Shown piece by piece: positions 10,260 to 46,484 of a DNA stretch of 47,428 bases. The notes beneath the pieces were generated by a model. That model did not search any database. It was not told where the DNA came from and was given only the letters and a program-made list of their open reading frames with translations. Within the stretch, counting starts at the first letter, position 1. Each line of letters opens with the position of its first letter. Source of the stretch: Alphaproteobacteria bacterium (lineage in GTDB: Bacteria > Pseudomonadota > Alphaproteobacteria > JAEULF01); the NCBI GenBank assembly GCA_016793965.1, contig JAEULF010000065.1:1-47428 (forward strand), in the 5' to 3' direction. The position numbers and the translations under genes were made by a program.

Positions 10260-10265
10260 GCCCGC

Positions 10266-11387: not shown

Positions 11388-11390
11388 ACC

Positions 11391-13860: not shown

Positions 13861-14756
13861 CCTTCCGATTGCCAGACCACAGGCGCTTTCCCTACGCGGC
13901 GATCAACCGCAGGCCAGACTACTCCTGGCCCGGCGGCAAGCGGCTCGCCGTCTATATCGGGCTCAATCTCGAGCACTTCGCCTTCGGCGAGGGGCTCGGC
14001 GGCGAGCTCGCGCCTGGTGGTCCGCAACCGGACGTCCTCAACTACGCCTGGCGCGAGTACGGCAACCGCGTCGGCGCCTGGCGCATGCTGGAGCTGTTCG
14101 ACGCGCTGAAATTGCCGGTCTCGGCTTTGGTCAACGCTGCCATCTACGATCACTGTCCCGACCTCGTCGCGGCGCATCGCGCGCGCGGCGACGAGATCGT
14201 CGCGCATGGCCGCAGCAACGCAGAGCGGCAGGGCGTGCTCGACGAAGCAGCCGAGCGCGCGCTCATCGCCGAGACGACGGCGACGATCGCGCGCCAGGAG
14301 ACGGGGCCGCCTGCCGGCTGGCTCGGCCCGTGGATCTCGCAGAGCCGGGTCACGCCGGACCTGCTGCAGGAGGCCGGGTATCGCTACCTCCTGGACTGGT
14401 GCCACGACGACCAGCCGACCTGGATGAAGACACGGCGCGGCCGCATCTTGGCCGTTCCCTATCCCCAGGAGATCAACGATATCCCGGCGATCATGATCCG
14501 CCGCACCGGCGCCGACGCATTCGCCGACATGATCGTCGACAACTTCGACGAGATGCTGGAGCAGTCCAAGGGCCAGCCATTGGTCATGGGGATCGCGCTG
14601 CACGCCTACATCGTCGGCCAGCCATTCAGGCTCCGCCACCTGCGGCGGGCGCTGGCGCGCATTGCTGCAGCCCATGACGAGGTCTGGCTCGCCACCGCGG
14701 GCGCGGTCGCAGCGCATGTCGCGCAACTGCCGGCCGGCACGGTTCCGGACCCCTGA
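13857..14756 (+). CDS. Polysaccharide deacetylase-family protein (PuuE allantoinase-like divergent deacetylase)
   Basis: 299 aa. N-terminal ...WPGGKRLAVYIGLNLEHF... and ...VAHGRSNAE... resemble the PuuE/urate-catabolism deacetylase family. Confidence 0.7.
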   Translation: MTFRLPDHRRFPYAAINRRPDYSWPGGKRLAVYIGLNLEHFAFGEGLGGELAPGGPQPDVLNYAWREYGNRVGAWRMLELFDALKLPVSALVNAAIYDHCPDLVAAHRARGDEIVAHGRSNAERQGVLDEAAERALIAETTATIARQETGPPAGWLGPWISQSRVTPDLLQEAGYRYLLDWCHDDQPTWMKTRRGRILAVPYPQEINDIPAIMIRRTGADAFADMIVDNFDEMLEQSKGQPLVMGIALHAYIVGQPFRLRHLRRALARIAAAHDEVWLATAGAVAAHVAQLPAGTVPDP

Positions 14757-15105
14757 TGCAGAGCGCCGTGCTGCAACGGCTACAGTGCAAGGAGCTCAGC
14801 CGAAGCGGGGCTGCGGTCGTTGATCTTGCTGCGGTCTAGAGAGATGCGGAGGCATAGGATCTCGTGCTGCTGCAACTGGAGGCGGCCCACCATCAGTCGG
14901 TGCCGTAGCGCGAGGTGATGATCGACCCGGAGAGCGGCCCGAGCAGGTCAGAGTCCATCAACTTGCCTTGAGTCCATGAGACTGGGTTCCGCCAGGCGGC
15001 ATTTGCTCGCCGAGCGCGTCAATCGCTGACGATCCAAAGTCACCTCGCTGACTGGCGACCGCCGCGTTGGCCGCGGAACACGAACAGGTTCCCGGAGAAC
15101 GGACG

Positions 15106-15543
15106 CTACGCGCAGCCAACTAATGCCACCGACAGGCTGCGGGACATATCGATCAGCAGTTGGTCCAGGTTCTCCGCCGGGATCGACAGCGGGTCGAACG
15201 CATCGGATTCGCCATGCTTCAATAGGAGCTGGCGTGTTGCCTCTTGATCGGGGACGTACCCCATCGCCCACGAACCGAAGCTGCGCTTGGCTGTTTCCCG
15301 GATCGACATGAGCGTGACGTCCGTGTGGCGCCGATCGGCGCTGATGCGCCGGAAGGTGCTGTTCACCGCCTTGCGCTCGCCCTCCAGGCACTGCATGAAG
15401 TAGTACCCGTTGAAGGCCAGCATGCCGGTGATGTTGTCCGCCGTGTTGTGCCTGCGGGCCGATTCGAGGATGGCGCCGACGTCGCCAGCGCTCCGAACGA
15501 GCGGATCGACCCGGCTCGCATAGACCAAAGAAACCAAAGCCAC
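15106..15543 (-). CDS. Short BLUF-domain blue-light photoreceptor (FAD-binding)
   Basis: 145 aa with a GTG start and an AAGGGGGA RBS. Contains SLVYASR (Tyr8), HNTADNITGML, FMQCLEGE (Gln51), D.RH and FGSWAM (Trp92/Met94). All canonical photocycle residues appear present, followed by a C-terminal extension of about 45 aa. Confidence 0.85.
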   Translation of the reverse strand: MALVSLVYASRVDPLVRSAGDVGAILESARRHNTADNITGMLAFNGYYFMQCLEGERKAVNSTFRRISADRRHTDVTLMSIRETAKRSFGSWAMGYVPDQEATRQLLLKHGESDAFDPLSIPAENLDQLLIDMSRSLSVALVGCA

Positions 15544-15570
15544 GATTTCCCCCTTACCGTAGGTATTCCT

Positions 15571-15633
15571 GTCAGGTGGCGCGCTGACCGGTCGTCACCT
15601 GACTTTCCACCGCCCGAATCATCTGCCGGGCGG
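15571..15633 (-). promoter_or_regulatory. Two stem-loops in the 93-nt cheB-BLUF spacer
   Basis: gtcaggtg...N17 (with inner palindrome gaccggtc)...cacctgac lies at 15571-15603. ccgcccg-N10-cgggcgg lies at 15610-15633, directly 3' of the cheB stop. Neither has a U-run. Confidence 0.35.
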
Positions 15634-15636
15634 CTC

Positions 15637-16707
15637 TCAGATCCGGATCGCACGGCCCTTGGTCGCCGCGAGCCGCAAGATCTCTGCGCCCATCTTGCTC
15701 AGCGGCAGCTCCCTTTCCACGGCGCCGGCTTGGCTTGCTGCCTTCGGCATGCCGTAGACCACGCAACTCGACGCATCCTCGCCGAGCGTCGCTGCTCCGG
15801 CATTGCGCATGGCAAGCAGGCCGTCCGCGCCGTCGCGCCCCATCCCCGTCAGGATCACGCCGATCGACCTCTGGCCGGCCACCCGCGCCACGGAATTGAA
15901 CAGCACGTCGACGGACGGCCGATGGCCGCTGACTGGTGCCCCGTCGCGCACCTCGCAAACGTAGTTGGCGCCAGACCGCGCCAGGCTCAGGTGATAGCTG
16001 CCCGGCGCGATGTAGACGTGGCCAGGCAGGACGCGCGCGCCGTCGCTCGCCTCGCTGACATGCACGGCCGCCATGCCGTCCAGCCGGGCGGCGAAGGTAG
16101 CGGTGAACTTCTCGGGCATATGCTGCACGACCAATGTCGCCGGCGCGTCGGCTGGGAGCGCGCAGATCACGTCGCGCAGCGCCTCGACGCCGCCGGTTGA
16201 GGCCCCGATCGCGACGATCGTCTCTGTCGAGCGATAGCCGAGCGAAGGGGCAATAGCCGGAGCTGATCGGTCGCTTGGCGCCCGCACCTTCGCGCGCGAA
16301 GCCGCGCGGACCTTCCTTACCAGCTCGTCGCGCAGGCCCTCCATGCCGACGCGCAGGTCAAGCTTGGGCTTGGCGACGAAGTCCACAGCGCCCAGCTCCA
16401 GCGCCCTGAGCGTCGCCTCCGCCCCCGATTCTGTCAGCGACGATACCATCACCACCGGCATCGGCCGCAGCCGCATCAGCCGCTCGAGGAAGTCGAGCCC
16501 GTCCATGCGAGGCATCTCGATGTCGAGCGTGATGACGTCAGGAGAGAACGTCTTGATCATGTGGCGCGCGACGATCGGGTCGCTCGCCACGCCCACCACT
16601 TCCATGTCCGGCTCCGCGCCGATCAGCTCGGCCAGAAGCTGGCGTATCAGCGCTGAGTCGTCGACGACAACAACGCGCGTCGGCCGTCCAGGAGCCTCAT
16701 CGATCAT
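15637..16707 (-). CDS. cheB: Chemotaxis response regulator protein-glutamate methylesterase
   Basis: 356 aa. The REC domain has [10 protein letters not shown] and [10 protein letters not shown]. The C-terminal methylesterase has IGASTGG, QHMP and TGMGRDGA. Confidence 0.95.
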
Positions 16708-17363
16708 CGGAACAGCTCCACCGTGCCCTCGACCTGCGCGTCCTTCAATCGCGCGCCGTAGCTCAGCTCCTCGCCGAAGATCTCCATGTCTGGCCGGCGC
16801 TTCAGCTCAAGGCGCTGCACGGTGCCCTTGGCCACGCCGAACAGGATGCGGCGCGGGAAACTGCCGCCCAGATCCTCGGCCGCGACGAAGATCTGCTCGA
16901 CCCGGAGATAGTCGCGGACGAACTGCGCGTTGGCGTCGCCAATCGGATTGCTCGACTTGATGACGTTGGCGCCTCCGAAGATCTTGGCCTCCAGGCGCTC
17001 GCGCCGCCCGCCGGCGGCAAGCACGTCGTTGATCAGCCGCTCCATCGCGAACGTGCCGTACCGCATTTGCCCGGCATCGCCCGTCCTCGCGCCGGCAGCG
17101 TCGAACGGCAGCAGGAAATGGTTCATGCCGCCGATCCCCGCCACGGGATCGCGGATGCAGGCCGCAACGCAGGACCCAAGCAGGGTCGCCAACGTCTCGT
17201 CGGCCGACCCGGACACGTAGTGCTCGCCCATGAGGATGTTCACGACCACGCCGCCCACGTTCGGGTCCCAGTAGCGCCGCGCCGAGGTTCGCGCGACTCC
17301 GGCCTCCGCTTGGCCGCGCCAGCGCTGCAGATCCGCCTGGCGGCGCATTGGGCCCGGACTCAT
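16704..17363 (-). CDS. cheD: Chemoreceptor glutamine deamidase
   Basis: 219 aa. Motifs YWDP...[20 protein letters not shown] (catalytic Cys context) and HFLLP. Its stop overlaps the cheB start (ATGA). The start is either 17363 or the ATG at 17348. Confidence 0.85.
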
Positions 17364-17364
17364 C

Positions 17365-18264
17365 TCAGCGCGCCCTGCGGTAAGTGGTCTTGCCCGCTGG
17401 CTCGAACCTGCTCGTCACGTTGAACAGCGCTTCTGAATGGCCGATGTAGAGCCAGCCGCCCGGTGCCAGCATGTCGGCAATCCGGTCGAACAGCTTTGCC
17501 TGCGTAGGCTTGTCGAAGTAGATCACCACGTTGCGGCAGAAGACGGCGTCGAACGGGCCGCGCATCGGCCATGGATCCATCAGGTTGAGCTGGTTGAACA
17601 CGATAAGGTCGCGCAGACCCTGGTCCATGACCGCGCAACCGCGCTGGACGGCGTAGCGGCCGCGATGGGCCGGAGGGATGGATTCGCACTGCCCCTCGTC
17701 GTAGCGGCCGGCAGACGCACGAGCGATCATCTCGGTGTCGAGATCGGTGGCGAGTATTCGGGCGTCCCAGCGCGCCAGGTTCGGCACCGATGCGGCGACG
17801 GTCATCGCGATCGAGTAGGGCTCCTGCCCGGAGGAGCAACCTGCCGACCAGATGCGCAGCCGGTTCGAGCCGCCGGCAGCGTTCTTGGCGACGATCTCTG
17901 GCAGCGCCACCTTGGCCAGATGCTCGAAATGATGCGGCTCGCGGAAAAAGGCGGTCAGATTCGTCGTCAGCGCATTGAGCATGTGCCCGAGCTCGACGCC
18001 TGCAGGCTCGGCTTCGATCAGCTGGCGATACTCAGCCAGGCTGGTGAGGCCGTGGGCACGCAAGCGGCGCGCAAGGCGGCCTTTCACCATCTCAGTCTTC
18101 TCAGGCCGCAATACGATCCCGGTCCGGTCGTAGACCAGGCGAGCGATGAAAGCGACGTGCTCTGCGTCCGGCTCGCGCACGGGCTGGCGGGCACGATCGG
18201 CAGAGCGCAGCCTCGATCCGCTGCCGACTGGCCCACGGCCCGCTCGTGATGTCGATTCAAGCAT
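17365..18264 (-). CDS. cheR: Chemotaxis protein-glutamate O-methyltransferase
   Basis: 299 aa. Motifs TNLTAFFREPHHFE, RIWSAGCSSGQEPYS, FCRNVVIYFD and GGWLYIGHSE. Confidence 0.9.
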   Translation of the reverse strand: MLESTSRAGRGPVGSGSRLRSADRARQPVREPDAEHVAFIARLVYDRTGIVLRPEKTEMVKGRLARRLRAHGLTSLAEYRQLIEAEPAGVELGHMLNALTTNLTAFFREPHHFEHLAKVALPEIVAKNAAGGSNRLRIWSAGCSSGQEPYSIAMTVAASVPNLARWDARILATDLDTEMIARASAGRYDEGQCESIPPAHRGRYAVQRGCAVMDQGLRDLIVFNQLNLMDPWPMRGPFDAVFCRNVVIYFDKPTQAKLFDRIADMLAPGGWLYIGHSEALFNVTSRFEPAGKTTYRRAR

Positions 18265-18306
18265 GACGGCAACTTCTCCGCGACGGTCTCGTGCCCGAGC
18301 CAGAAA

Positions 18307-19419
18307 TCAGAACATCTCCACGGTGCCTGCGGCCGCCTGAGCGAGAGCTGGAGAGGCAGCCTCGTCGCGCACCACCTGCGCCACGAAGCGCTTGCGCATC
18401 TCGGATAGGGAGAAGTTCTCCAGGATCTCGTTCAGCCAGCGGCGGTCGATCTGCCCGTTCCAATCTTGGGCAGCCGCTTGCGCGCGGGTCTCCTGCTGCA
18501 GAGATGCAAGCGCCTTGCCCAGGATGGCCAGTGTGTCGACGACATGGTCCAGATGCTGCTTGGCACGGTCCTGGAACTGGACCCCGGTGATCATCTTGGA
18601 GACGGTGTCCGACTGGCTGGCCGACGCGGCCGCGACCTCGGCCAGCACCGCTGCGAACTTCCGGTTCTGCTCGGTCAAGCCGCGCATCATCTCGTCCAGC
18701 TGGCCCCGCGCCTTCATGTGCTCGGACAGGTCGATCGTCACGATCTGCCTGAGGATGGCGTGGCCGCGCTGAACGCCGCTCGCAACGTCCGTTATCTGGC
18801 GGCGCATCGTCTCGGCGAGTGCGTTCGTCGTCCTCGACAGCCCGCGCACCTCAGAGGCGACCACCATGAACGTACGGCCGGCATCTCCTGCGCGTTGCGC
18901 CTCGATGGTCGCGTTCAATGCCAAGAAGTTCGTTTGGCGGTTGATCTGCTCGATCTGCGCGATGGACTTCACGGTATTGTCGACCTGCTTCGAGACCTCG
19001 TCGAGCGCCTGCACCATCGTCCCGGCGAACTTGTTCAAGAGCAAGATCGTGTCGATAACCTTGCCGAGAAGCCCCTCGACGAAGCCGGTTATGTCCCCGA
19101 TGGACAGCGTCCGCTCGCCGACGACGACCTTCTCGGCTGCGGCGACGACGTCGCCGAGCAGCGCGGACTGCCGCTGCGACCCTTCGGCCAGCTCCTTGAA
19201 GCGGCGGCTGAGGTCCTCCGTGCTGGTCTCAACAAGGTCCGAGGTCGCAGAGATCTCACGGCAGAGCACGTCGAACGCGCGGCGCTCGAGCTCCGAGAGC
19301 TGGAGCCAGCGGCGCAGCAGGTCGGCAGCTCGGTCGCCGCACTTCGGCTCCGCCGCCTGTGAGGAACCCGCCTCGCTTGAAGCCGGGAGGTCGGACGGCA
19401 TCATCACATCGTAGGGCAT
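18307..19419 (-). CDS. Soluble MCP-signalling-domain protein with no recognisable sensor or TM region
   Basis: Start moved to the ATG at 19419 (MPYDVMM...). 370 aa. Hairpin-tip motif IAQIEQINRQTNFLALNATIEAQRAGDAGRTFMVVASEVRGLS. No hydrophobic segment. The C-terminus is ...GTVEMF. Confidence 0.8.
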   Translation of the reverse strand: MPYDVMMPSDLPASSEAGSSQAAEPKCGDRAADLLRRWLQLSELERRAFDVLCREISATSDLVETSTEDLSRRFKELAEGSQRQSALLGDVVAAAEKVVVGERTLSIGDITGFVEGLLGKVIDTILLLNKFAGTMVQALDEVSKQVDNTVKSIAQIEQINRQTNFLALNATIEAQRAGDAGRTFMVVASEVRGLSRTTNALAETMRRQITDVASGVQRGHAILRQIVTIDLSEHMKARGQLDEMMRGLTEQNRKFAAVLAEVAAASASQSDTVSKMITGVQFQDRAKQHLDHVVDTLAILGKALASLQQETRAQAAAQDWNGQIDRRWLNEILENFSLSEMRKRFVAQVVRDEAASPALAQAAAGTVEMF

Positions 19420-19432
19420 GGCAGTGGCTCGC

Positions 19433-20266
19433 CTAGTGGATGTCTTTGAAGGCACGGGGCTCTCCGCGAGACCGATTGCTGGCCGCCTTCTGCTTGCCGT
19501 GCGGCAGGGCACGGCCACCGTCGGCTCGCGCGTCGAGCCATCTCCTGAAGCCGTCGCACGGCAGCGGCTTGCAGAGCAGGAAGCCTTGCGACATGGCGCA
19601 GCCAAGGTCGTCCATCGGCGCATTCTGGTTGTCGCGCTCGATGCCCTCCGCCACGACGTTCAAGTCCAGCCTGCGAGCGAGGCGGCTGATCGCGTCGGCC
19701 ACTGCTGCGTCCTTTGCGCTCTCGACCACGACCAGGTCGCGGCGCTCGATCGACAGCAGCGCCATCGAGCGTTCGATCGCGGCATCAAAGTCATGCGGCG
19801 CGACGCCGACGAAGGCGGAGATGAACAAGGCAAGGAGCTGCTCGATGTCGGTGCGCTCTTCGAAGGCTCGCATCCGCCGCGCGAGGGCTGCTTTGGCCAG
19901 CCGCGCGTTCTCCACGAGGTGACCGATCTGCCGACATGACGTAGCCTGAGCCATCGGGCTCAGCGCATCGTCCGCGTCTGAGGCCAGGATGCCGGGACGA
20001 AGGCTCAGGATCACAGCATCCCAGAGCGCGACGCATTCGATGACCGTCGTGGCGCCGGCTTGCGGCGTCGGAGCGATCGCCGTGCCTGGCAGGTCGATCG
20101 CCAGCCGCCGTGCTTCACGACCGCTCGCGCGTGCAGAGATCTCGACGGCGCCGTCGACCAGAAGGCGGATTGCGTCCGGGCGATCCAGCACGGCCTGGAC
20201 ATTCGCGCCCGCTGCGCAGCGGCTCGCCACGAAAGCCGGCTCGTTGATGTCGGGCGATTGCGCCAT
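19433..20266 (-). CDS. Stand-alone divergent (probably degenerate) EAL-like domain protein
   Basis: Start set at the ATG at 20266 (MAQSPD..., 277 aa). The C-terminal EAL signature is retained: LNVVAEGIE...LGCAMSQGFLLCKPLP, with 20-aa E-to-Q spacing. EIS replaces EAL, HDFDAA replaces DDFGTG, and LSIE replaces LKID. The upstream 189 codons of the track ORF are Arg/Pro/Ser-rich. Confidence 0.6.
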   Translation of the reverse strand: MAQSPDINEPAFVASRCAAGANVQAVLDRPDAIRLLVDGAVEISARASGREARRLAIDLPGTAIAPTPQAGATTVIECVALWDAVILSLRPGILASDADDALSPMAQATSCRQIGHLVENARLAKAALARRMRAFEERTDIEQLLALFISAFVGVAPHDFDAAIERSMALLSIERRDLVVVESAKDAAVADAISRLARRLDLNVVAEGIERDNQNAPMDDLGCAMSQGFLLCKPLPCDGFRRWLDARADGGRALPHGKQKAASNRSRGEPRAFKDIH

Positions 20267-20479
20267 CGATGTCGCCGATCTCCTGAGTCGATTGCGCCGC
20301 GCGCGTGACACGGGGCGGGTCGTCACGTGCCGCAGCTTCCCAGGTGACCCGGGGCGTCCTGGAGCAGTGTTCAGGCGCCGGATCAGACCTCGGAGCAGCC
20401 TCTCTCGCGCCCGAGCAGCGGCATCGGCCGTCTCGGTGCCCGAGAGCGGGGAAGTTCGCCCCGAGCTGGGAAGGATCCA

Positions 20480-20508
20480 CGAGGCGGCTCCGCTGGGAAG
20501 CCGCCTCG
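20480..20508 (-). terminator. Strong stem-loop 15 nt downstream of the PAS-MCP stop codon
   Basis: On the minus strand, CGAGGCGGCT-N9-AGCCGCCTCG forms a perfect 10-bp GC-rich stem. It is not followed by a U-run, so it could be a terminator, an attenuator or an RNA-processing/stability element. Confidence 0.4.
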
Positions 20509-20522
20509 CGGTCCACAGGAGC

Positions 20523-23255
20523 TCAGAACTCCTTCCAGCTATCCGCAGTCCCGGCGACGGCGCGCTTGCCGGCCGCGGCGCGGGCAGGCTTGACGGTCGG
20601 CATCGGCGTCTGCATGGCACGCGGTCTCTGGCGGCCGTTGCCGTTCGCTCCAGCGGCGTGGGCGTCTCCGCTGTTGCCGCTTGGGCGGCGCGTCCCGTTG
20701 GAGCCAGGTGCATGCACCTCCTCGCCGTTGCCGTTGGTCCGGCGTGGCGCGCTGACTGGCTTGGCGAGCGGCTGCTGCCGCGGCGCCGCGGCGGCACGAC
20801 GGGACGCGTCGCTGTCCTCTTCGGCGCCTTCATCGATCCTGAAGAACTCTATCGTTTGCGTCAGCTGCTCGGCCTGCTGCGTCATCGACTGCGAAGCGGC
20901 CGCGCTCTCCTCGACGAGGGCCGCGTTCTTCTGCGTCATCTCGTCCATCTGGGAGACCGCGGTGTTCACCTGCTCGACGCCAGAGGACTGCTCGGCGCTC
21001 GCTGCAGCGATCTCGGCCACGATATCGGCCACCCGCTTCACCGCCGTGACGATCTCGCCGAGCGTCTCGCCGGCGTTCTTCACCATCTGCACGCCGTCCT
21101 TGACCTGGAGGCTGCTGTCGACGATCAGCGCCTTGATCTCCTTCGACGCCTGCGCCGAGCGCTGGGCCAGCGTGCGGACCTCGGCGGCCACCACCGCGAA
21201 GCCCTTGCCGGCGTCGCCGGCGCGCGCGGCCTCGACGGCCGCGTTGAGCGCCAGCAGGTTGGTCTGGAAGGCGATCTCGTCGATCACGCCGATGATGTCG
21301 GAGATCTTCCGCGACGAGCCCTCGATCTTGCTCATCGCCTGGATCGCCTCGGCGGCGACCGCGCCGCCCTTCTCGGCAGAGGCCCGGGCCCCGGCCGCGA
21401 GCTGGTTGGCCTGCTGCGCGTTCTCCGAGTTCTGCTTCACCGTCGCAGCGAGCTCCTCCATCGAGGCCGCCGTCTCCTCCAGGCTCGAGGCCTGCTGCTC
21501 GGTGCGCGAGGACAAGTCGCTCGCGCCCGACGAGATCTCGGCCGAGGCCGTGGCGATCGTGCGCGTCGCGTCGACGATCCGACCGACGATCTCGGTCAGG
21601 CTTTGCGCCGTGTTGTTCGCGTCGTTCTTGATCTGCTCGAACATTCCCTGGTGGGCGCCCTCGATGCGCCGCGTCAGGTCGCCCTTCGAAAGCCCGTCGA
21701 GGAAGGTCACCACCTCGTCGACGATGCGCTTGGTGGCGAGATCCTGCTCGACCTTCGCCGTGATGTCGGTGGCGTACTTCACGACTTTGAACGGCCTGCC
21801 GTTCACGTCCATGATCGGGTTGTAGCTGGCCTGGATCCAGACCTCCTTGCCGCCGCGCCCGATGCGCTTGTACTGGCCCGTATCGTACTCGCCCCGCCCA
21901 AGCCTGTCCCAGAACAGACGGTACTCGGGGCTCTGCTTGTAGGCAGCCTCGACGAACATGCTGTGGTGCTGGCCGCGCACCTCTTCCAGCGTGTAGCCCA
22001 GCACCTTCAGGAAGTTCTCGTTGGCCGTCAGGATCTTGCCGTCGAGCGAGAACTCGATCGTCGCCTGCGACTTGCTGATCGCAGCGAGCTGACCTTCGAA
22101 GTCCGCGTTGCGGATCTTCTGCTCCGTCACGTCGGTGGCATACTTGACCACCTTGAACGGCTTGCCGTTCAAGTCGTTGATCGGGTTGTAGCTCGCTTGG
22201 ATCCAGACTTCCTTGCCGCCGCGGGCGATCCGCTTGTACTGGCCCGCGTCGTACTCGCCGCGCCCCAGCTTGTCCCAGAAGAGACGGTAATCCGGACTCT
22301 GCCTGAAGGCCGGGTCGACGAACATGCTATGATGCTGGCCGCGCACTTCGTCCAGCGTGTAGCCTAGCAACTTCAGGAAGCTCTCGTTGGCGTGCAAGAC
22401 CTTGCCGTCGAGCGAGAACTCGATCACCGCCTGCGACTTGCCGATGGCCGCGATCTGGCCCTCGAAGTCGGCGTTGCGGGCCTTCTGCGCGGTGATGTCG
22501 AAAGCGTACTTCACCACCTTCACCGGCTTGCCCTTGCCGTCCTTGATCACGTTATAGCTGGCCTGGATCCAGACCTCCTTGCCGCCGCGACCGATGCGCT
22601 TGTACTCGCCCGCGTCGAACTCGCCGCGACCAAGCTTCTCCCAGAACGCCCGGTAGTCCTGGGTCTGGCGATATGCCGGGTCGACGAACATGCTGTGGTG
22701 CTGGCCGCGCACCTCATCCAGCGTGTAGCCCAGCAGCCTCAGGAAAATCTCGTTCGCGGCCTGGACCTTGCCGTCCAGCGAGAACTCGATGGTGGCCATC
22801 GAGCGGTCGATGGCGCTGGCATAGGCCGTGTGGTCGGCGTTGAGCATGCGCTGGGCCGCGTCGGTCCATTCCACGACGGTGCCGATGCGCGCCTGCTTGT
22901 CGTCCAGGAGCGGCGTAGCCACAAGGTCGAACACCCGTCCGCCGACCTTGATCGTGGCCCTGTGGGTGTCCCTCAGTCCGCCCAGCAGGCGATGCTGATG
23001 GCTCGGGTCCTTGTGGAACACGTCGATGCTGGCGCCGATCAGCTTCGACGCATCGAAGCTCGGCAGGTCGCGGCGGATCTCGTCTTGCGCCTCCTTCATC
23101 ATCGCGAGCACGCCCGGGTTCATGTAGACGATGTTGAACTCGGCATCGGCGATCATCACGTTCGCCACGAGCTTGTCGATCGCCGCGAGCTTCACGGCTT
23201 CAACCAGGTTGCTGCTGGAGAAGCCGAACCAAGACGACTTGCGCTGCGCTTGCAT
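20523..23255 (-). CDS. Cytoplasmic methyl-accepting chemotaxis protein with four PAS/PAC domains, a HAMP-like linker, an MA domain and a C-terminal xWxxF pentapeptide
   Basis: 910 aa with no TM segment. One N-terminal PAS precedes three near-identical PAS/PAC units. MA-domain motifs are [21 protein letters not shown] and [44 protein letters not shown] Gly/Ala/Pro/Arg-rich tail ends in DSWKEF. Confidence 0.9.
21756..22823 (-). repeat. Intragenic tandem triplication: three 366-nt (122-codon) PAS/PAC-encoding units
   Basis: The motif IEFSLDGK recurs at residues 156, 278 and 400. The string ccagac(c/t)tccttgccgccgcg recurs on the plus strand at 21837, 22203 and 22569, with exact 366-nt spacing. 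Boundaries are approximate. Confidence 0.85.
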
Positions 23256-23311
23256 TTTCTATTCCCCTGAAGGACGCGCCGTGTCTGACGACGGCAGTGT
23301 GAAAAAACGGA

Positions 23312-23854
23312 TCAGTTCTGGAGCTCGGCGGCGGATAGGCTCTTCTGGTCGACCCGATCGAGGCTGAACATGCGATCGAGGGTCAGGAGAGCCACCATCC
23401 GGTCCTCGATCGAAACGAGGCCGCAGAGGAACTTCGCATCCTCGGCGCCGTCCATCTCGGGCACGGGCTGCACCGTCGATCGGTCGATCGACAGGATGTC
23501 GCTGACCGCGTCGACGAGGATGCCGATGACGCGCTCCTTGACGCGCACGATGACCACCACATGCGTCTTGGTGACCTCGGTCTCGCCGCCGCCGAAGCGG
23601 GCGCGAAGGTCGAAGATCGGTACCATCGTGCCGCGGAGGTTGATCACGCCCCGCACGTAGGTCGGCGCGTTCGGCAGCCGCGTCGCCTGCGTCCAGCCCT
23701 TGATCTCGCGAACCTCCATGATGTCGACGCCGTACTCCTCGGCACCGACCTTGAAGGTGATGAATTGATCGGTCTGCGCCGAGGCCTCGGCCTCTTGCAC
23801 AGCGGGCATCGATTGGCCACGTGCCGGGGCCAGGTCGATCTCAGTCACGCTCAT
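23312..23854 (-). CDS. cheW: Chemotaxis coupling protein CheW
   Basis: 180 aa. Motifs QFITFKVGAEEYGVDI, VRGVINLRGTMVPIFDLR and GILVDAVSDIL. Confidence 0.9.
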   Translation of the reverse strand: MSVTEIDLAPARGQSMPAVQEAEASAQTDQFITFKVGAEEYGVDIMEVREIKGWTQATRLPNAPTYVRGVINLRGTMVPIFDLRARFGGGETEVTKTHVVVIVRVKERVIGILVDAVSDILSIDRSTVQPVPEMDGAEDAKFLCGLVSIEDRMVALLTLDRMFSLDRVDQKSLSAAELQN

Positions 23855-23882
23855 CAGCGATACCTCCTGCTCGAGCTCATGT

Positions 23883-25961
23883 TCATTGTGCGACGGCAGG
23901 GGAACTGCCGGTCGGGGGCGGCAGGGCGGCAGGCGCGGTCGGCGCAGCGTCCGCCGCCTCCGCTACGCGGCCGAGCCCCGCGAGATCGAGGATCAGCGCG
24001 ACGCGGCCATCGCCCAGGATCGTCGCCGCCGAGATGCCGTCGATCTGGCGATAGTTCGTCTCCAGGCTCTTGATGACGACCTGCTGCTGACCCAGGATCT
24101 CGTCGACGACGAGACCTACCTTCAGGCCGTTCTCGACCTCGGCAACGACGACCAGCCCCCGGCACGGATCGTTGACCGCGTCGGCACAGCCGAAGACCTG
24201 AGCCAGGTAGACGAGGCGGATGTACTCGCCGCGCAGCGCCATGACCCGACCGCTTCCGGCCAGCCGCGCCACGTCGCGCGGCAGCGGGCGCAGGCTCTCG
24301 ACGATGCTGGCGAGCGGCACGATGTAGCGCTCGACGCCCAGCGTCACGATCATCCCGTCGAGCACGGCGAGCGTGAGCGGCAGCGACAGCGTGAACCTCG
24401 ACCCGCGGCCGGGCTTCGAGTCGATGTGGACGCGCCCGCCTAGCGCCTGGATGTTGCGCTTGACTACGTCCATGCCGACGCCACGGCCCGAGATGTCCGA
24501 TACCTTCGATGCCGTGGAGAAGCCGGGCAGGAAGATGAAGTTGTCGATCTCCTCGTCGCTGGGCGCGGCGCCCGGCGCCACGAGGCCCCGCGCGACGCAC
24601 TTCTCGAGAACGCGTCGGCGGTCGATGCCCGCCCCATCGTCCTCCACCTCGATGACGATGCGGCCGCCCCGGTGCCTAGCGGAGAGCAGAATGGTGCCGG
24701 TCCGGGGCTTCCCCGCAGTCACCCGCGCGTCCGGCATCTCGATGCCGTGGTCGAGCGCGTTGCGCACCATGTGGACCAGCGGGTCGCTCAGCTGCTCGAT
24801 GACGGTCTTGTCGACCTCCGTATCCTCTCCGGACATCAGCACGCGCGCTTCCTTGCCGAGCTGGGCCGAGAGCTCGCGCACAAGGCGAGGCATGCGCTGG
24901 AACACCGATTTCACGGGCTGAGCCCGGATCGACATCACGTTCTCTTGCAGCTCGCGGGCGTGCGCCGCCATCTGGCTCAGGCCGGCCGCGAGCTCCGGGA
25001 CGACGTCGCCCTGCACGGCCGCGACCTGCTGGCTAAGCATCGCCTGCGTGATCAGGATCTCGCCGACCATGTTGACCAGGCGGTCGATCTTCTCGATGTC
25101 GACTCGGATCGTGGATTGCTCGCCCGAGACCGGCGCGATGGCGCCCTGGGCCGCCCGATCGGTCTCGGTCGCGCGAGCAAGAGCGGTGGCCGCAGCCGGC
25201 AGCGGCTCCTCTGGTCCATCGGCCGATGTTGGCGGCAGCGGCTCGATCGCGATCTCGCAATCGTCCGCCACGAACTCGAACACCTCGCAGATGCGCTCTT
25301 CGTTCTCGGCTGTCTCGACCTCCAGCACCCAGCAGAGATACATGCCGTCGGGCTCGATCGACGCGAGATCGGGAATCGCGGACGTATCGACGGCGACCTT
25401 GACCGCGCCAAGCGTCCTCAGCTCGCGCAGGAGCAGAAGCGGCTCGTTGGCCTTGCGCAGCAGGTCGCGGCTTGGCGTGAAGCGCACGCGCCAGCGACGC
25501 TTTTGGCGCGGCTCGATCTCGGCGACCCGGCCTGGTCCGGCCGATCGCGGGGATGCCCCGCTCCGCTGCAAGCCGAGCGAGGACTTCAGCGCCGCCAGCT
25601 CGGCCGCCGCCGCCGCCTCATGATTGTCGAGGAGCACGAGCCCGCTCCGGTCGGCCTGCACCAGATCCGCGAGCGTGTCGAGGGCGCGCAACAGAGTCGC
25701 GTGCGATTCGAGGTCGAGCGACGCCTTGCCCGACCGGAATCCGTCGAGCACCGTCTCGAACTCATGCGCGAACTTGACCAGGCGATCGAGGCCGAAGGCC
25801 CCGGCACCGCCCTTGATCGAATGCACCGCACGGAACAAGCCGGCCATCGCCTCGCCGTCCTGCGGATCGTCGCCGAGCGACATCAGGCGCGCTTCCGCGG
25901 ACGACAGCAAGTCGCCGCATTCCTCGAAGTAAGTGCGCTTGAATCGGTCGGTCGGGTCCAT
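23883..25961 (-). CDS. cheA: Chemotaxis histidine kinase CheA
   Basis: Start at the ATG at 25961 (MDPTDRFKRTYFEE...). 692 aa. Hpt H-box AVHSIKGGAGAFG. N-box HMVRNALDHGIE. G1 box VEDDGAGID. G2 box SGRGVGMDVV. C-terminal CheW-like domain. Confidence 0.95.
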   Translation of the reverse strand: MDPTDRFKRTYFEECGDLLSSAEARLMSLGDDPQDGEAMAGLFRAVHSIKGGAGAFGLDRLVKFAHEFETVLDGFRSGKASLDLESHATLLRALDTLADLVQADRSGLVLLDNHEAAAAAELAALKSSLGLQRSGASPRSAGPGRVAEIEPRQKRRWRVRFTPSRDLLRKANEPLLLLRELRTLGAVKVAVDTSAIPDLASIEPDGMYLCWVLEVETAENEERICEVFEFVADDCEIAIEPLPPTSADGPEEPLPAAATALARATETDRAAQGAIAPVSGEQSTIRVDIEKIDRLVNMVGEILITQAMLSQQVAAVQGDVVPELAAGLSQMAAHARELQENVMSIRAQPVKSVFQRMPRLVRELSAQLGKEARVLMSGEDTEVDKTVIEQLSDPLVHMVRNALDHGIEMPDARVTAGKPRTGTILLSARHRGGRIVIEVEDDGAGIDRRRVLEKCVARGLVAPGAAPSDEEIDNFIFLPGFSTASKVSDISGRGVGMDVVKRNIQALGGRVHIDSKPGRGSRFTLSLPLTLAVLDGMIVTLGVERYIVPLASIVESLRPLPRDVARLAGSGRVMALRGEYIRLVYLAQVFGCADAVNDPCRGLVVVAEVENGLKVGLVVDEILGQQQVVIKSLETNYRQIDGISAATILGDGRVALILDLAGLGRVAEAADAAPTAPAALPPPTGSSPAVAQ

Positions 25962-25993
25962 GGGCTGGTCCGCTCCTGATCGTCCCGTCAATC

Positions 25994-26359
25994 TCACGGG
26001 CAGACCTTGGAGACGGTCTGCACAAGCTTCTCGGGATTGAACGGCTTGACCAGCCATCCAGTTGCACCGGCAGCCCGGCCGTCATTCTTCTTCTCCGAAT
26101 CGCTCTCGGTCGTGAGCATCAGGATCGGGGTCGCGCCATAGGCAGCGTTGGCCCGAAGCCGACGGATCAGCTCCAGCCCGTCCATCTCCGGCATGTTGAG
26201 ATCCGTGATGATGCAATCCACCTTGGACTGCGCCAGGGCTTCGAGCGCGTTCTTGCCGTCCGTCGCCTCGACGACCTCATAGCCGGCCTGCCGCAACGTG
26301 AACGCGATCATGTCGCGCATCGTCTTCGAATCATCGACGGTCAGGACGCGCTTACTCAT
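25994..26359 (-). CDS. cheY: Chemotaxis response regulator CheY
   Basis: Start at the ATG at 26359 (MSKRVLTVDDSKTMR...). 121 aa. Motifs IITDLNMPEMDG, LTTES and VKPF. Confidence 0.9.
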   Translation of the reverse strand: MSKRVLTVDDSKTMRDMIAFTLRQAGYEVVEATDGKNALEALAQSKVDCIITDLNMPEMDGLELIRRLRANAAYGATPILMLTTESDSEKKNDGRAAGATGWLVKPFNPEKLVQTVSKVCP

Positions 26360-26669
26360 CGATCTTCCCCCAGAGTTGCAGTTCTTCGGATAGGCCAAGA
26401 TCGTCGAACGCGAGTCGGAACGCCGGCGACGAGGGCCCAACCAGGAGCTCGTGCCCTGCACTGGCCAGCGCCCTTCGCGCCGCGAGGAGGACCTGCACGC
26501 ACGGCGTCGTGATGCGCTCTACGCCTTCGGCGTCTATCGCGATGCGCCGGCCAGCTTTCGACAGTTCGAGAAGTGCCCGCTTGAGCGCCGGCGCGGCGAC
26601 CACGTCGTTGACCGGCGCGAGCCGCAGAGTGTCGAAAGCACGACCCGGTATGATGGAGTACTCTTCCAT
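26352..26669 (-). CDS. Small STAS-domain protein, CheS-like
   Basis: Start at the ATG at 26669 (MEEYSIIPG...). 105 aa with an anti-sigma-antagonist-like layout. Its stop overlaps the cheY start by 8 nt (ATGAGTAA). The position upstream of cheY-cheA matches the rhizobial cheS position. Confidence 0.6.
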   Translation of the reverse strand: MEEYSIIPGRAFDTLRLAPVNDVVAAPALKRALLELSKAGRRIAIDAEGVERITTPCVQVLLAARRALASAGHELLVGPSSPAFRLAFDDLGLSEELQLWGKIDE

Positions 26670-26954
26670 GATCTCGCTTCTTGCTCGCCGCCGACGACCT
26701 TGCCGTTCAGCGCTTATCGAGCGTTGCACCGATCAACTCGAGTCGGCATATGGCTTAGCCGGCTATGTCGGAGACCTAGTCCAAGCCTCCTATCGACTAT
26801 CGGGGCCTAGCTCTCACGAACGACAGAGGCTCTACGTTCGGTATCGCTCTCTTCGTGCGCTTATCCGTTCGGCTGAAATGCTTGCGGCGGATTCGGCCGG
26901 AGCGCCGTTCGGCGATCACCTTCTTCCGAGACGCACGGACGGGGATCCAGCGCG

Positions 26955-27424
26955 TCACTGAGGCGGCTCCGGCAGGCGCGCGCAGCCGATAGCGCAGGCC
27001 GCGGTCGCAGCGGCAGCGCCGACAATCTCGCGCACGGCGCGCGCGGCCGCCCAGCCGACGAAGAGCAGCGTGACGGCAACGACAGCCGCGCGCGGCAGCC
27101 CGACGAGCTGCGACAAGCAGCCCGAGAAGCCCAGCGCGATGGCGGCGCTCGAAACGCGCTATGCCCGCAGAAAGCAGCGCCCGCAGCGCGGGGGAAGCCG
27201 CGCGCGAGGACAGCGTCGCTGAACGAAGTCGCGGTCGCGACGATGGCGGCGACCCCGACGCCGTGAAGCACGAGCATCGGCAGCGTGACGTCGCGTCTGA
27301 GGGATGGGACGTTGGCGACGGTCTCCCCAGGTGGCCGCAGCAGAGGTTCGGACTCTCGCAGGCCAAGCCGGTGCACGCCGCGATTGACGGCGTCCTGATC
27401 GGCGCGCGATAAGCGCGTCCCCAT
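26955..27424 (-). pseudogene. Small membrane-protein gene apparently disrupted by a frameshift near 27150-27185 (or a sequencing error)
   Basis: There are two adjacent high-GC3 hydrophobic reading frames on the minus strand. The upstream frame reads ...DVTLPMLVLHGVGVAAIVATATSFSDAVLARGF.... The downstream frame, shifted by one base, reads ...AAIALGFSGCLSQLVGLPRAAVVAVTLLFVGWAAARAV...PEPPQ* and stops at 26955. The downstream frame has an in-frame TAG just upstream and no start codon. The N-terminal boundary is uncertain (27424 or 27277). Confidence 0.35.
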
Positions 27425-29045
27425 GATCCGTCTCGACAACATCGGCAAGCGCCTCGGCGACCGCATTCTGTTCGTCGAAGCCTCTGCGGCCATCAATCGC
27501 GGCGAGAAGATCGGCTTGGTCGGTCCCAACGGGGCCGGCAAGACCACGATCTTCCGCCTGATCGCCGGCGGCGAGGCGCCCGACGAGGGCCAGGTCACGG
27601 TCGAGCGCGGGATCACCATCGGCTATTTCAGCCAAGATATCGGCGAGATGGCCGGGCGCAGCGCCATCTCAGAGGTCATGGCGGGTGCCGGACCCGTGAG
27701 CGAGATCGCCGCCGAGCTCAAGGTCCTGGAGACCCGCATGGGCGATCCCGATCAAGCGGACGATCTGGACTCGCTGGTGGCGCGCTTCGGCGAAGCGCAA
27801 GCGCGCTTCGAGGAGCTGGGCGGCTACGAACTTGAAGCGCGCGCGAGAGAGACGCTGGCGGGCCTCGGCTTCGATCAAGCGATGATGGACGGCGACGTAG
27901 GCAGTTTGTCGGGCGGCTGGAAAATGCGCGTGGGCCTCGCGCGCATCCTGCTGATGCGGCCCGACGTCATGCTGCTCGACGAGCCGAGCAACCATCTCGA
28001 CATCGAGAGCCTGATCTGGCTCGAATCCTTTCTGCTGGGCTTCGAAGGCGCGCTGGTCATGACCTCGCACGACCGCGCCTTCATGAATCGCGTGGTGACC
28101 AAGATCGTCGAGATCGACGGCGGCACGCTCACGGCGTTCTCGGGCGACTACGAGTTCTATGAGCGCCAGCGCGCGCTCAACGAGAAGCAGCAGCAGGCGC
28201 AGTTCGAGCGCCAGCAGGCGATGCTGGCCAAGGAGATCAAGTTCATCGAGCGCTTCAAGGCGCGCGCGAGCCACGCGGCACAAGTCCAAAGCCGGGTGAA
28301 GAAGCTCGACAAGATCGACAAGATCGAGCCGCCGCGCCGCCGCCAGAGCGTGGCATTCGATTTTCCCGCCCCGCCGCGCTCGGGCGACGACGTGGCGATC
28401 CTCAAGCGCGTCGCCAAACGCTACGGCGCCAAGACGATCTACGACGGCTTCGACCTCGCCATCCGGCGCAGGGAGCGCTGGTGCGTGATGGGCGTGAACG
28501 GCGCGGGGAAATCCACGCTGCTGAAGCTCGTCGCCGGCGCCACGACGCCTGACGAAGGCACCGTCACGCTGGGCGGCTCGGTCAAGCTCGGCTATTTCGC
28601 CCAGCACGCGATGGAGGTGCTCGACGGCGATCGCACGGTGTTGGAGACGCTCGCCGATGCCTTTCCGCGCGCGGGCCAGGGGTCGCTGCGGACGCTGGCC
28701 GGCTGTTTCGGATTCTCGGGCGACGATGTCGAGAAGCGGGCCCGCGTGCTGTCGGGCGGGGAGAAGGCGCGCTTGGTGATGGCGCTGATGCTCTACGAGC
28801 CTCCGAACTTCCTGGTGCTCGACGAGCCCACCAACCATCTCGATATCGCCACGAAGCAGATGCTCATCGAGGCCTTGGCCAATTTCGAGGGCACGATGCT
28901 GTTCGTCTCCCATGACCGGCATTTCCTGGGGGCGCTATCCAATCGCGTGCTCGAGCTGACCGCCGACGGTGCGCATCGTTACGAAGGGGGGTATCTCGAA
29001 TACGTCGCGCGCACCGGCCAGGAGGCGCCGGGCTTGCGCGACTGA
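27423..29045 (+). CDS. ABC-F family ATPase (two ABC cassettes, no TM domain)
   Basis: 540 aa. Two Walker A motifs (GPNGAGKTT, GVNGAGKST), two signatures (LSGGWKMRV, LSGGEKARL), two Walker B motifs, and an inter-domain Gln/Arg-rich linker. Confidence 0.9.
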   Translation: MIRLDNIGKRLGDRILFVEASAAINRGEKIGLVGPNGAGKTTIFRLIAGGEAPDEGQVTVERGITIGYFSQDIGEMAGRSAISEVMAGAGPVSEIAAELKVLETRMGDPDQADDLDSLVARFGEAQARFEELGGYELEARARETLAGLGFDQAMMDGDVGSLSGGWKMRVGLARILLMRPDVMLLDEPSNHLDIESLIWLESFLLGFEGALVMTSHDRAFMNRVVTKIVEIDGGTLTAFSGDYEFYERQRALNEKQQQAQFERQQAMLAKEIKFIERFKARASHAAQVQSRVKKLDKIDKIEPPRRRQSVAFDFPAPPRSGDDVAILKRVAKRYGAKTIYDGFDLAIRRRERWCVMGVNGAGKSTLLKLVAGATTPDEGTVTLGGSVKLGYFAQHAMEVLDGDRTVLETLADAFPRAGQGSLRTLAGCFGFSGDDVEKRARVLSGGEKARLVMALMLYEPPNFLVLDEPTNHLDIATKQMLIEALANFEGTMLFVSHDRHFLGALSNRVLELTADGAHRYEGGYLEYVARTGQEAPGLRD

Positions 29046-29291
29046 GCCCGCCGACTCGAGTGCGCTCGATTGCTTCCGGCGAGCTACGCCCGGAAATCCG
29101 AGCTCGAACTGACCAGGGAGATCGCGCTGCTGATCGAGCCGGCAGGCGTTCCGGGCGGCTTCGTCGATGGGGCGCTGTGCTCTGCGGCACGTTCGGAGAA
29201 GGCGGATGCCGGGCCAGAATTGAACCGATGGCCTCTGGGTCGTTCGCTCGGCAGCCATTTCGGCGAAACTGACGCGCGCGCAAGTCGCTTG

Positions 29292-29336
29292 TGAACCAAA
29301 GCAACAAGGGCCTAGCCGTTTCCGGCTAAGCCCTTG
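29292..29336 (-). terminator. Rho-independent-type terminator downstream of tRNA-Ala
   Basis: On the minus strand, CAAGGGCTTAGCCG-GAAA-CGGCTAGGCCCTTG (one mismatch, 29305-29336) is followed by TTGCTTTGGTT. Confidence 0.55.
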
Positions 29337-29343
29337 CCTTACT

Positions 29344-29419
<76 letters not shown>

Positions 29420-29479
29420 GCGCCGCCTTACGGCGGGATTGGCAGCGTCGCCGGGCCTGGGGGCCGGCGGCGCCTGCGA

Positions 29480-29508
29480 TAGTTAGGTCCGGCCGTTTGG
29501 ACGCGCAA
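29480..29508 (-). promoter_or_regulatory. Candidate sigma70-type promoter for tRNA-Ala
   Basis: On the minus strand, TTGCGC-N17-TAACTA lies about 60 nt upstream of the mature tRNA 5' end. The -35 element sits within a 7-bp palindrome (GCGCAAG-GCA-CTTGCGC) that also follows the upstream gene's stop. Confidence 0.3.
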
Positions 29509-29544
29509 GTGCCTTGCGCGAGCCGCCGTCGGCCCTGGGAACCG

Positions 29545-29877: not shown

Positions 29878-30016
29878 AGGCAAATCTCCTTCGCGCGCCG
29901 CGCGCCGCGCATCGAGTTGGCTCGATGCCTCATGTCCCGTAAACGGCCCGGCGCCGCTCGACCGGAAGTCGAGCCGCGCCGTCCGCTTGCGTCGGATTTG
30001 CGCCGGCCGTAATTAA

Positions 30017-46444: not shown

Positions 46445-46484
46445 ACCGGGACGCGCGGCACGCCGCGCTGACAAGGAGGCGACG

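Follow-up and report, generated by a model that had tools for sequence, protein, structure and literature searches.

Two groups of described systems bear on the locus analyzed here. The first is the F7 class of chemosensory clusters. In the most ancient form (stage 1), an F7 cluster has genes for an anti-sigma antagonist, CheY, CheA, two copies of CheW and an Aer2-like receptor, followed by the adaptation genes; its 3′ part reads cheR, cheD and cheB, then an mcpA-like receptor gene, a second antagonist gene and a serine phosphatase gene (Ortega et al. 2020, PMC7184735). The second group is the short BLUF photoreceptors, of which PixD acts solely by binding, in a light-dependent way, a receiver-domain protein with control over motility behavior (PMC5812497). 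Here we describe a locus in which members of both groups lie side by side, in the 47,428-nt contig JAEULF010000065.1 (the whole of which is called “the window” below) from an alphaproteobacterial metagenome-assembled genome (MAG). On the minus strand, a Che cluster with the features of an ancestral F7 system is followed by a gene for a short BLUF protein. This kind of pairing recurs in distant lineages, and the explanation that best fits the evidence as a whole, which we hold with moderate confidence, is that the BLUF protein is an accessory blue-light input to the F7 pathway.

There is already evidence connecting BLUF proteins with chemotaxis genes. In Spongiibacter nanhainus CSC3.9, the short BLUF protein I6N98_15960, encoded beside che genes, has been shown to bind flavin adenine dinucleotide (FAD) (Shan et al. 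2022, PMC8805636). Its deletion abolishes the induction of che genes by blue light and alters motility in soft agar (PMC8805636). The S. nanhainus locus resembles the one described here in that a short BLUF gene adjoins a chemotaxis cluster in a non-phototroph. It differs in that the BLUF gene lies upstream of its cluster rather than 3′ of cheB, and that cluster is shown with motAB and with 4-kb and 33-kb stretches omitted, such that the text does not tell F6 from F7. The effect measured there is on expression, while the route to CheA, CheW, CheY and CheR is a proposal (PMC8805636). A second precedent is Achromatium, for which BLUF-domain methyl-accepting chemotaxis proteins (MCPs) have been reported and BLUF has been suggested to feed light directly into chemoreceptor signaling (bioRxiv 10.64898/2026.03.30.715255). 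The Achromatium BLUF domain, known from domain annotation alone, belongs to a fusion with the receptor, whereas BLUF is a separate gene here. There is also a conceptual parallel in YtvA, a LOV-STAS protein of the Bacillus subtilis stressosome, where a flavin-based blue-light sensor feeds a STAS/PP2C partner-switch stress pathway. In one of the loci discussed below (L092), the BLUF gene is likewise directly 3′ of STAS and REC-PP2C genes (REC, receiver domain). However, the photosensor of YtvA is a LOV domain fused to STAS, and Che proteins play no part there, in contrast to the BLUF family sensor found here.

The initial annotation of this DNA, made from the sequence alone, knew of no characterized route from BLUF to a Che kinase. 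That holds for a BLUF-to-CheA mechanism, but a genetic link between BLUF and che genes had been published for S. nanhainus (PMC8805636). The cluster class and the short BLUF proteins are each already known; their recurrent pairing, as a PixD-type BLUF protein with an F7 system of the Aer2/McpA kind, appears undescribed in the literature searched, which leaves out most subscription journals.

Architecture of the cluster and the BLUF protein

Pfam matches confirmed all eleven genes in the order that the initial annotation had given, STAS-cheY-cheA-cheW-PAS-MCP, then EAL-like-MCP-cheR-cheD-cheB, then BLUF, all on the minus strand, and the lengths of the two gaps that divide this series are exact (Table 1). 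Judging from gene order, gene content and receptor features on this one MAG contig, the cluster is an ancestral (stage-1-like) F7 chemosensory system, the class of Vibrio cholerae cluster III and Pseudomonas aeruginosa Che2. Its likeness to stages 1 and 2 lies in the order of STAS-cheY-cheA-cheW and of cheR-cheD-cheB, in a cytoplasmic Aer2-like receptor of the 36H class with a heme-type PAS, a HAMP domain and a C-terminal pentapeptide, in an McpA-like receptor with a conserved C-terminus of the xVExF type, and in the lack of flagellar genes nearby. At the 5′ end, STAS_2/STAS, Response_reg and CheA domains occur in the stage-1 order. The STAS gene is also directly 5′ of cheY in loci L007 and L128 and fits the 5′ STAS gene of stage 1 (PMC7184735). 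CheY is 55–68% identical to the CheY proteins of related clusters, and cheA has an alternative candidate start codon at 26057. The cheR-cheD-cheB block of stage 1 is present and contiguous, with junctions that overlap (as the cheB start does with the cheD stop) or measure 1 nt.

The larger receptor has the PAS and HAMP domains, the 36H signaling domain, the x[HFYW]xx[HFYW] tether and the absence of a periplasmic domain that mark the Aer2-like receptor of stage 1. One of its four PAS units is of the Aer2 type, and the other three are tandem PAS_3 units. Residues 24–134 match the heme PAS domain of P. aeruginosa Aer2 (4HI4/3VOL, E 6e-34) and retain the FHK His and the EWTD Trp; with an Aer2-type heme PAS in the main receptor, the ligand is likely to be oxygen or another gas. 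From HAMP through the tip to the end, the protein aligns without gaps with residues 228–519 of Escherichia coli Tsr, a 36H receptor. At its C-terminus, a long low-complexity linker leads to the pentapeptide SWKEF, which fits the CheR tether motif. The three PAS_3 units are encoded by a tandem array of 2.8 copies of a 366-bp unit (83% matches; 21756–22790). Among solved structures they come closest to FAD-type PAS domains (MmoS, 3EWK; Aer, 8DIK), so the receptor may sense redox or flavin signals besides heme ligands.

The smaller, sensorless receptor has the C-terminus of the McpA family. It ends in GTVEMF, with counterparts GSVELF, CDIELF, GDVELF and GEVELF, the motif being common to L007, L008, L092, L157 and L001; the Val at motif position 2 fits the published description of McpA (PMC7184735). 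The protein is 35–39% identical to the receptors 3′ of cheB in L007 and L008, and 38% identical to the L001 receptor. Neither receptor of the window cluster has a transmembrane segment (no 19-mer lies above a Kyte-Doolittle value of 1.6), there is one CheY, and neither CheZ, CheX or CheC nor flagellar genes were found among the coding open reading frames (ORFs) of the window, all as the initial annotation had said. An all-cytoplasmic cluster with one CheY is real, then, but it is not unusual, being the published stage-1 F7 architecture. The suggestion that such a cluster has an alternative cellular function fits, as the ancestral F7 class is thought to serve a non-flagellar function (PMC7184735).

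The cluster also departs from the published stages. There is a single CheW ORF, between cheA and the receptor gene, instead of the two of stage 1; a single cheW is the stage-2 state. The mcpA-like gene sits between the aer2-like gene and cheR, accompanied by an EAL remnant, and not after cheB. The Aer2-like receptor has its three additional PAS_3 units, and cheB is followed by a BLUF gene, BLUF not being found in the text of PMC7184735. Finally, the F7 stages were defined in gamma- and betaproteobacteria, whereas the host here is an alphaproteobacterial MAG. A perfect hairpin stands 15 nt past the stop codon of the larger receptor gene, at the head of the gap before the EAL-like ORF; the terminator scan did not call it, and it may be a transcript boundary that splits the cluster into two transcripts, or a stabilizer.

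By sequence and predicted structure, the BLUF protein is an intact PixD-type short photoreceptor. Its match to PF04940 (98 bits against a cut-off of 25) extends over profile positions 1–92 of 92. The four residues singled out in the initial annotation, Tyr8, Gln51, Trp92 and Met94, are present and, in an alignment that runs end to end with PixD, match its Y8, Q50, W91 and M93, and together with Asn33 they are invariant in a 31-sequence family alignment. The protein also carries His32-Asn33, which we take to be the His-Asn pair of AppA. An AlphaFold2 model (predicted local distance difference test score, pLDDT, 86.4) has a beta-alpha-beta-beta-alpha-beta-beta fold plus two C-terminal helices; Foldseek places it closest to TePixD and SyPixD (TM score 0.85, root-mean-square deviation 1.6 Å), followed by BlsA and BlrB, with TM scores of 0.78–0.86. 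PixD (Slr1694, Tll0078) thus has the same size, the same photocycle residues and the same fold, including both C-terminal helices, at a sequence identity of about 31–33%. What differs is the company it keeps: PixD partners a type IV pilus system, while the genomic partner of the window BLUF gene is an F7 Che cluster, with no homologue of the PATAN-REC protein PixE in the window.

The BLUF gene has a strong Shine-Dalgarno sequence (AAGGGGG at 15549–15555, 5 nt before the start codon) and a G+C content at third codon positions (GC3) of 0.83. The two hairpins that the initial annotation had seen in the spacer between cheB and BLUF exist, at about 15610–15634 and 15571–15603, but they lack a T tract and show no folding advantage over shuffled sequence (z = −0.8). 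The scan called neither a promoter nor a terminator in the spacer, and no Rfam family matched it; a regulatory RNA or terminator was rejected on these grounds. The spacer is identical in the conspecific contig L088. With no terminator or promoter called and an unremarkable fold, co-transcription of BLUF with cheR-cheD-cheB is plausible.

Recurrence of the pairing and a proposed light input

How often do BLUF genes accompany F7 clusters? A metagenome scan with a 14-sequence BLUF alignment returned 80 loci, L126, L139, L157, L128 and L095 among them. Clustering of the BLUF proteins at 85% identity gave 55 lineages, eight of which are F7-linked. The binomial p for this linkage is about 1e-5 at a background of 2% and 0.006 at 5%, the background being assumed, not measured. 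For example, L092, a 49-kb Logan contig whose BLUF protein is 40% identical, carries on one strand an Aer2-like MCP gene, cheR-cheD-cheB, an MCPsignal-only gene, STAS, REC-SpoIIE and BLUF, with a 38-nt gap. This is a textbook stage-1 3′ end plus an appended BLUF gene. In L126, BLUF follows cheB after 42 nt; in L139 the order is cheB, a short mcpA-like gene and BLUF, and in L157 it is cheD-cheB-mcpA-like-BLUF. The L128 BLUF gene is divergent from STAS-cheY-cheA, and that of L095 lies 3.4 kb past cheR-cheD-cheB. L001 has the closest BLUF protein outside the species (62%), encoded after a gene whose 193 visible residues are 38% identical to the window McpA-like receptor and end in GTIELF. Hence, the arrangements vary among cheB-BLUF, mcpA-BLUF, REC-PP2C-BLUF and BLUF divergent from STAS-cheY. 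The F7-linked BLUF proteins are 40–62% identical to each other, and the G+C content of their loci ranges from 0.41 to 0.68. The presence of BLUF beside F7-type clusters in distant lineages favors a functional light-to-chemosensory link, and from the genomic evidence such a link is likely. To this extent the idea in the initial annotation that the locus couples light to a chemosensory pathway stands, although the nearest related clusters, L007 and L008, have no BLUF gene.

To our knowledge, all characterized short BLUF proteins act by light-dependent protein-protein binding. Their known partners are a PatA-type response regulator, EAL enzymes and transcription factors. The Aer2-like receptor is serviced by CheR through its C-terminal pentapeptide, and by CheD and CheB. 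In the accessory-input explanation, the BLUF protein, presumably co-transcribed with cheR-cheD-cheB, would act as a blue-light accessory input to the F7 pathway, or as a gate on it, through light-dependent binding to another protein. By analogy with PixD-PixE, its target would most likely be a receiver-domain component, namely CheY, the CheB receiver or, where present, REC-PP2C; alternatively, it could be the McpA-like or the Aer2-like receptor. PixD works via PixE, and the neighbors of BLUF genes encode CheB, McpA-like receptors, REC-PP2C and (in L128) STAS and CheY, which makes a receiver or the McpA-like receptor the best-guess target. The F7 pathway might then merge oxygen or redox signals and light into a non-flagellar output, probably a stress or partner-switch response. 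A stress-response role of F7 systems is reportedly supported by evidence. A stronger version of this proposal casts PixD-type short BLUF proteins as dedicated subunits that serve ancestral F7 (Aer2/McpA) arrays as accessories in scattered proteobacteria. By light-dependent binding of a receiver-domain or receptor component, they would let these arrays merge oxygen and blue light into a STAS/REC-PP2C stress response; we regard this version as possible but not probable.

What are the implications of a BLUF input to an F7 pathway? [quoted passage not shown] If the proposal is true, light would, first, join oxygen as a defined stimulus for the F7 class. Second, it would be a clean, switchable input for finding what the F7 pathway controls. 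Third, Che-type machinery would be added to the partners known for short BLUF proteins. If the dedicated-subunit version is true, BLUF would be a first defined extra input to a class of pathways still lacking a clear function after two decades.

The precedents for BLUF function also suggest a transcriptional role. In this alternative, the BLUF protein is a light-dependent anti-repressor or co-regulator, as in AppA/PpsR, BluF/BluR and BlsA, of the che cluster or of other genes, and its position is that of a regulator beside its regulon. Indeed, what is reported to depend on BLUF in S. nanhainus is a rise under blue light in both the transcripts and the proteins of che and mot genes (PMC8805636), the L095 BLUF gene is directly 3′ of a gene for a Crp/Fnr-type regulator, and that of L128 faces away from the promoter region of its cluster. 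However, no DNA-binding partner (PpsR, BluR, MerR) was found in or beside the cluster within the window, and BLUF is usually at the 3′ end of the adaptation operon, after gaps of 38–93 nt, a placement that suits a subunit or accessory gene more than a regulator. We consider a transcriptional role unlikely.

Some members of the BLUF subfamily have other neighbors. In L131 (964–1602) and L140 (2430–3158), a full EAL-domain gene is convergent just 3′ of BLUF, as in PapB-PapA, so this subfamily seems to pair with different partners depending on the genome. In L089 (5221–8249) and L090 (1012–4040), a dCache-HAMP-MCP gene is divergent from a BLUF gene (44% identical), with no other che genes nearby.

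Related clusters, strain variation and the EAL-like open reading frame

Relatives of the cluster were also collected from the F7 side, anchored on CheB, from GTDB with one genome per species. The nearest are L007, from a Rhodopseudomonas sp. MAG, and L008, from a Sneathiella MAG; in this set the best CheB match is 60% (L007), and no genus-level relatives were found. A megablast search of the cluster against PLSDB plasmids gave solely short matches to MCP domains, at 69–77% identity. L007 has the order STAS-cheY-cheA-cheW-PAS-MCP-cheR-cheD-cheB-mcpA-STAS-REC-PP2C in full, and L008 shows the part from cheR to REC-PP2C. Relative to both, the window cluster is rearranged: its mcpA-like gene is preceded by the 10-bp hairpin, the 256-nt gap and the EAL-like ORF, the 3′ STAS-phosphatase pair is gone, and BLUF occupies the slot after cheB. 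In the comparison of gene neighborhoods that the initial annotation had proposed, the cheB-BLUF adjacency is found in three conspecific contigs and in L126 and is absent from L007 and L008, and the EAL insert is not conserved.

Several observations weigh against an accessory light input. First, the pairing is rare from the F7 side: an adjacent BLUF gene is present in none of the 80 CheB-anchored loci, L007 and L008 included, and one of the 80 has a BLUF gene 9.5 kb away. Second, 47 of the 55 BLUF lineages have no Che neighbor, and some of these adjoin EAL, MCP or unrelated genes. Third, the Che-linked BLUF proteins are scattered across the tree; that they form one clade was rejected by a neighbor-joining tree. 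Their low mutual identity, varied G+C content and scatter point to an old linkage that has often been lost, or to repeated recruitment, both of which are usual for functionally connected genes. Fourth, the L157 BLUF gene is frameshifted in its assembly. Fifth, the 3′ output module of canonical stage 1 is absent from the window, where neither a second STAS gene nor a SpoIIE/PP2C gene was found among the coding ORFs, and these could lie elsewhere in the genome; L007, L008 and L092 have both the second STAS and the phosphatase.

Variation within the species adds to these points. Identity to the window is 99.3–99.8% in four conspecific contigs from other samples (L087, L088, L173 and L174). The cheB-BLUF junction lies within three of them, L088, L173 and L174, and the adjacency is kept in each; L087 carries the segment with the EAL-like, mcpA-like and cheR genes, ordered as in the window. 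In cheB, the mcpA-like gene and cheR combined, there are 12 synonymous and 6 nonsynonymous differences. The BLUF gene, by contrast, has 7 nonsynonymous differences and no synonymous one (Fisher p against the core genes, 0.005), and the EAL-like ORF, compared with L087, has 9 and 1 (p 0.006). L174 (ENA ERZ926171) is 99.6% identical to the window, and its 10 differences, counted over 2.4 kb, are confined to the spacer and BLUF (window positions 15216–15629). They remove the GTG start, change the Shine-Dalgarno sequence and replace the invariant flavin-pocket Asn (N33D). The pattern resembles local decay or a recombined allele; as far as the sequence tells, the BLUF copy of at least this strain looks dead. 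Several of the variants are common to more than one contig, which marks them as real alleles. In this species, BLUF looks to be under relaxed or diversifying selection, with weak constraint. Nonsynonymous-only polymorphism together with a dead-looking allele lowers confidence that BLUF is essential to the pathway here.

These data bear most directly on the possibility that BLUF and the EAL-like ORF are passengers without a role in the cluster, newly gained or decaying at rearrangement junctions, with recurrence reflecting the landing of small sensor genes beside signaling operons. The cluster is reshuffled relative to L007 and L008, with the mcpA-like gene moved along with the EAL remnant and a gap, and with STAS-REC-PP2C lost. 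Strain differences in both accessory ORFs are nearly all nonsynonymous, while those in the core che genes are mostly synonymous, and one allele (L174) lacks the start codon and Asn33. The 14–30 kb region falls below its flanks in G+C, and a tRNA-Ala gene is 2.7 kb away. Set against this, the BLUF subfamily is found at F7 clusters in eight lineages that are independent of each other, span at least two strongly differing G+C backgrounds and show four arrangements; moreover, the window BLUF gene retains all invariant residues, a strong Shine-Dalgarno sequence and a GC3 of 0.83. We assign the passenger explanation a low probability, and an accessory light input remains the reading that we prefer.

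The EAL-like ORF is, by its sequence, a truncated, degenerate and species-specific EAL remnant under relaxed constraint, and it would stand outside the mechanism. The initial annotation called the whole gene EAL-like, a label that suits the C-terminal ~55–110 residues and not the rest of the ORF. Its Pfam EAL match is limited to profile positions 182–236 of 236 (55 positions, 37 bits), and EAL enzymes in the PDB align mostly with residues ~165–260, DosP reaching back to 136. One full-length homologue was found, the conspecific protein P0032, both by HMMER among 1.84 billion representatives and in a word-indexed set of 5.8 billion proteins; the ~12,000 other matches cover at most residues 133–276. 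For the N-terminal 165 residues, neither search (exhaustive for the 1.84 billion) gave a homologue outside the species. The Glu, Asn, ExxE, DDFGTG and Lys motifs of EAL are not recognizable in the ORF. In an alignment with two EAL proteins, which is weak in the N-terminal half, the catalytic positions read D, VEN, EQLLAL and S, and the region of the EAL motif itself is absent. The nonsynonymous differences from L087 include V204D, in a core strand, and the GC3 of the ORF (0.75–0.88) is lower than that of adjacent genes. An AlphaFold2 model from a 4-sequence alignment had a pLDDT of 36 throughout and, being uninformative, was not used.

Intact REC-EAL genes occur in betaproteobacterial F7-like clusters. 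Such a gene lies between the receptor gene and cheR in L036 (2026–3282), L061 (1–858) and L084 (~7300–8556), which belong to Rhodoferax, Rubrivivax and Burkholderiales. In L060 a large EAL-containing gene is directly 3′ of cheB, and in L072 and L082 an EAL gene is within the cheB flank. Such genes suggest a cyclic di-GMP output in those lineages. As a speculation, the fragment in the window may descend from a REC-EAL output gene like those of L036, L061 and L084. A tblastn search of 19850–20520 found no frameshifted REC or N-terminal EAL remnants beyond the C-terminal segment, so a simple frameshifted REC-EAL pseudogene is not demonstrable.

The initial annotation had drawn from the EAL-like gene a link to cyclic di-GMP and a split BLUF and EAL pair that brackets the adaptation module. 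BLUF and EAL-derived sequence do occur in one locus here, as in PapB-PapA of Rhodopseudomonas palustris, BlrP1 of Klebsiella and BluF/YcgF-BluR of E. coli, and the degenerate EAL recalls that of YcgF. In those systems, however, the EAL domain is full-length and fused to or beside BLUF, whereas in the window it is an unconserved C-terminal fragment four genes off. A split pair of the PapB-PapA or YcgF kind, tying blue light and Che to cyclic di-GMP turnover or sensing, could draw on the EAL C-terminal signature in the same cluster, on the intact REC-EAL genes in the MCP-cheR position of L036, L061 and L084, and on EAL genes near BLUF in two or three other lineages (L131, L140 and L104). Yet the ORF matches only 55 of 236 profile positions and has no recognizable catalytic motifs, its first 165 residues lack homologues outside the species, its strain differences run 9 to 1 in favor of nonsynonymous changes, V204D among them, and the other seven F7-linked BLUF loci are all without an EAL gene. 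A split pair is very improbable, and neither the cyclic di-GMP link nor the pair has held up. The EAL-like gene gives no evidence for cyclic di-GMP coupling at this locus, which corrects an attractive but wrong lead.

Coordinates and surrounding sequence

Table 1. Features of the Che cluster and its BLUF gene, in order of transcription; positions are those of the window.
Feature	Position	Strand	Basis
STAS (anti-sigma-factor-antagonist-like), first gene of the cluster	26352–26669	−	Pfam STAS_2 42 bits, STAS 23.5 bits
cheY, 121 aa, single-domain response regulator	25994–26359	−	Pfam Response_reg 108.6 bits; identical to MBL8669605.1
cheA	23883–25961	−	Pfam Hpt, H-kinase_dim, HATPase_c, CheW
cheW, single copy	23312–23854	−	Pfam CheW 127.9 bits
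Aer2-like PAS-HAMP-MCP receptor, 910 aa	20523–23255	−	Pfam PAS units, HAMP_2, MCP signaling domain
Non-coding gap from receptor to EAL-like ORF, 256 nt	20267–20522	−	Exact from sequence
Perfect 10-bp G+C-rich hairpin, CGAGGCGGCT-N9-AGCCGCCTCG	20480–20508	−	Read from sequence; no T tract
EAL-like ORF, 277 aa	19433–20266	−	Pfam EAL, partial, 37 bits
McpA-like sensorless receptor, 370 aa	18307–19419	−	Pfam MCPsignal 83.6 bits
cheR	17365–18264	−	Pfam CheR_N and CheR; identical to MBL8669599.1
cheD	16704–17363	−	Pfam CheD 89.7 bits
cheB, REC and methylesterase	15637–16707	−	Pfam Response_reg and CheB_methylest
Spacer between cheB and BLUF, 93 nt	15544–15636	−	Exact from sequence
BLUF, 145 aa, start codon GTG, final gene of the minus-strand run	15106–15543	−	Pfam PF04940 98 bits; identical to MBL8669596.1

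The G+C content of the window is about 0.66–0.72. The region 14001–30000, which holds the Che cluster, has values of 0.64–0.69, compared with 0.70–0.74 in the flanks, and the tRNA-Ala(GGC) gene at 29344–29419 lies 2.7 kb from the cluster; the Che-cluster region may have been horizontally acquired. Elsewhere, the window carries housekeeping genes (aroA, cmk, rpsA, an HU/IHF-type gene and pgk) together with catabolic and transport genes. Among the latter is an opine/sarcosine oxidase-like set at 8328–12836 (a Pyr_redox_2/SO_alpha_A3/BFD [2Fe-2S] protein, a DAO oxidoreductase and a class-III aminotransferase), adjoined by an amino-acid ABC transporter at 5386–8358. The mechanically called ORF at 44267–46474 has 735 residues, with the phosphoglycerate kinase domain confined to residues 348–724; its long N-terminal extension is probably an artifact of stop-poor, G+C-rich sequence.

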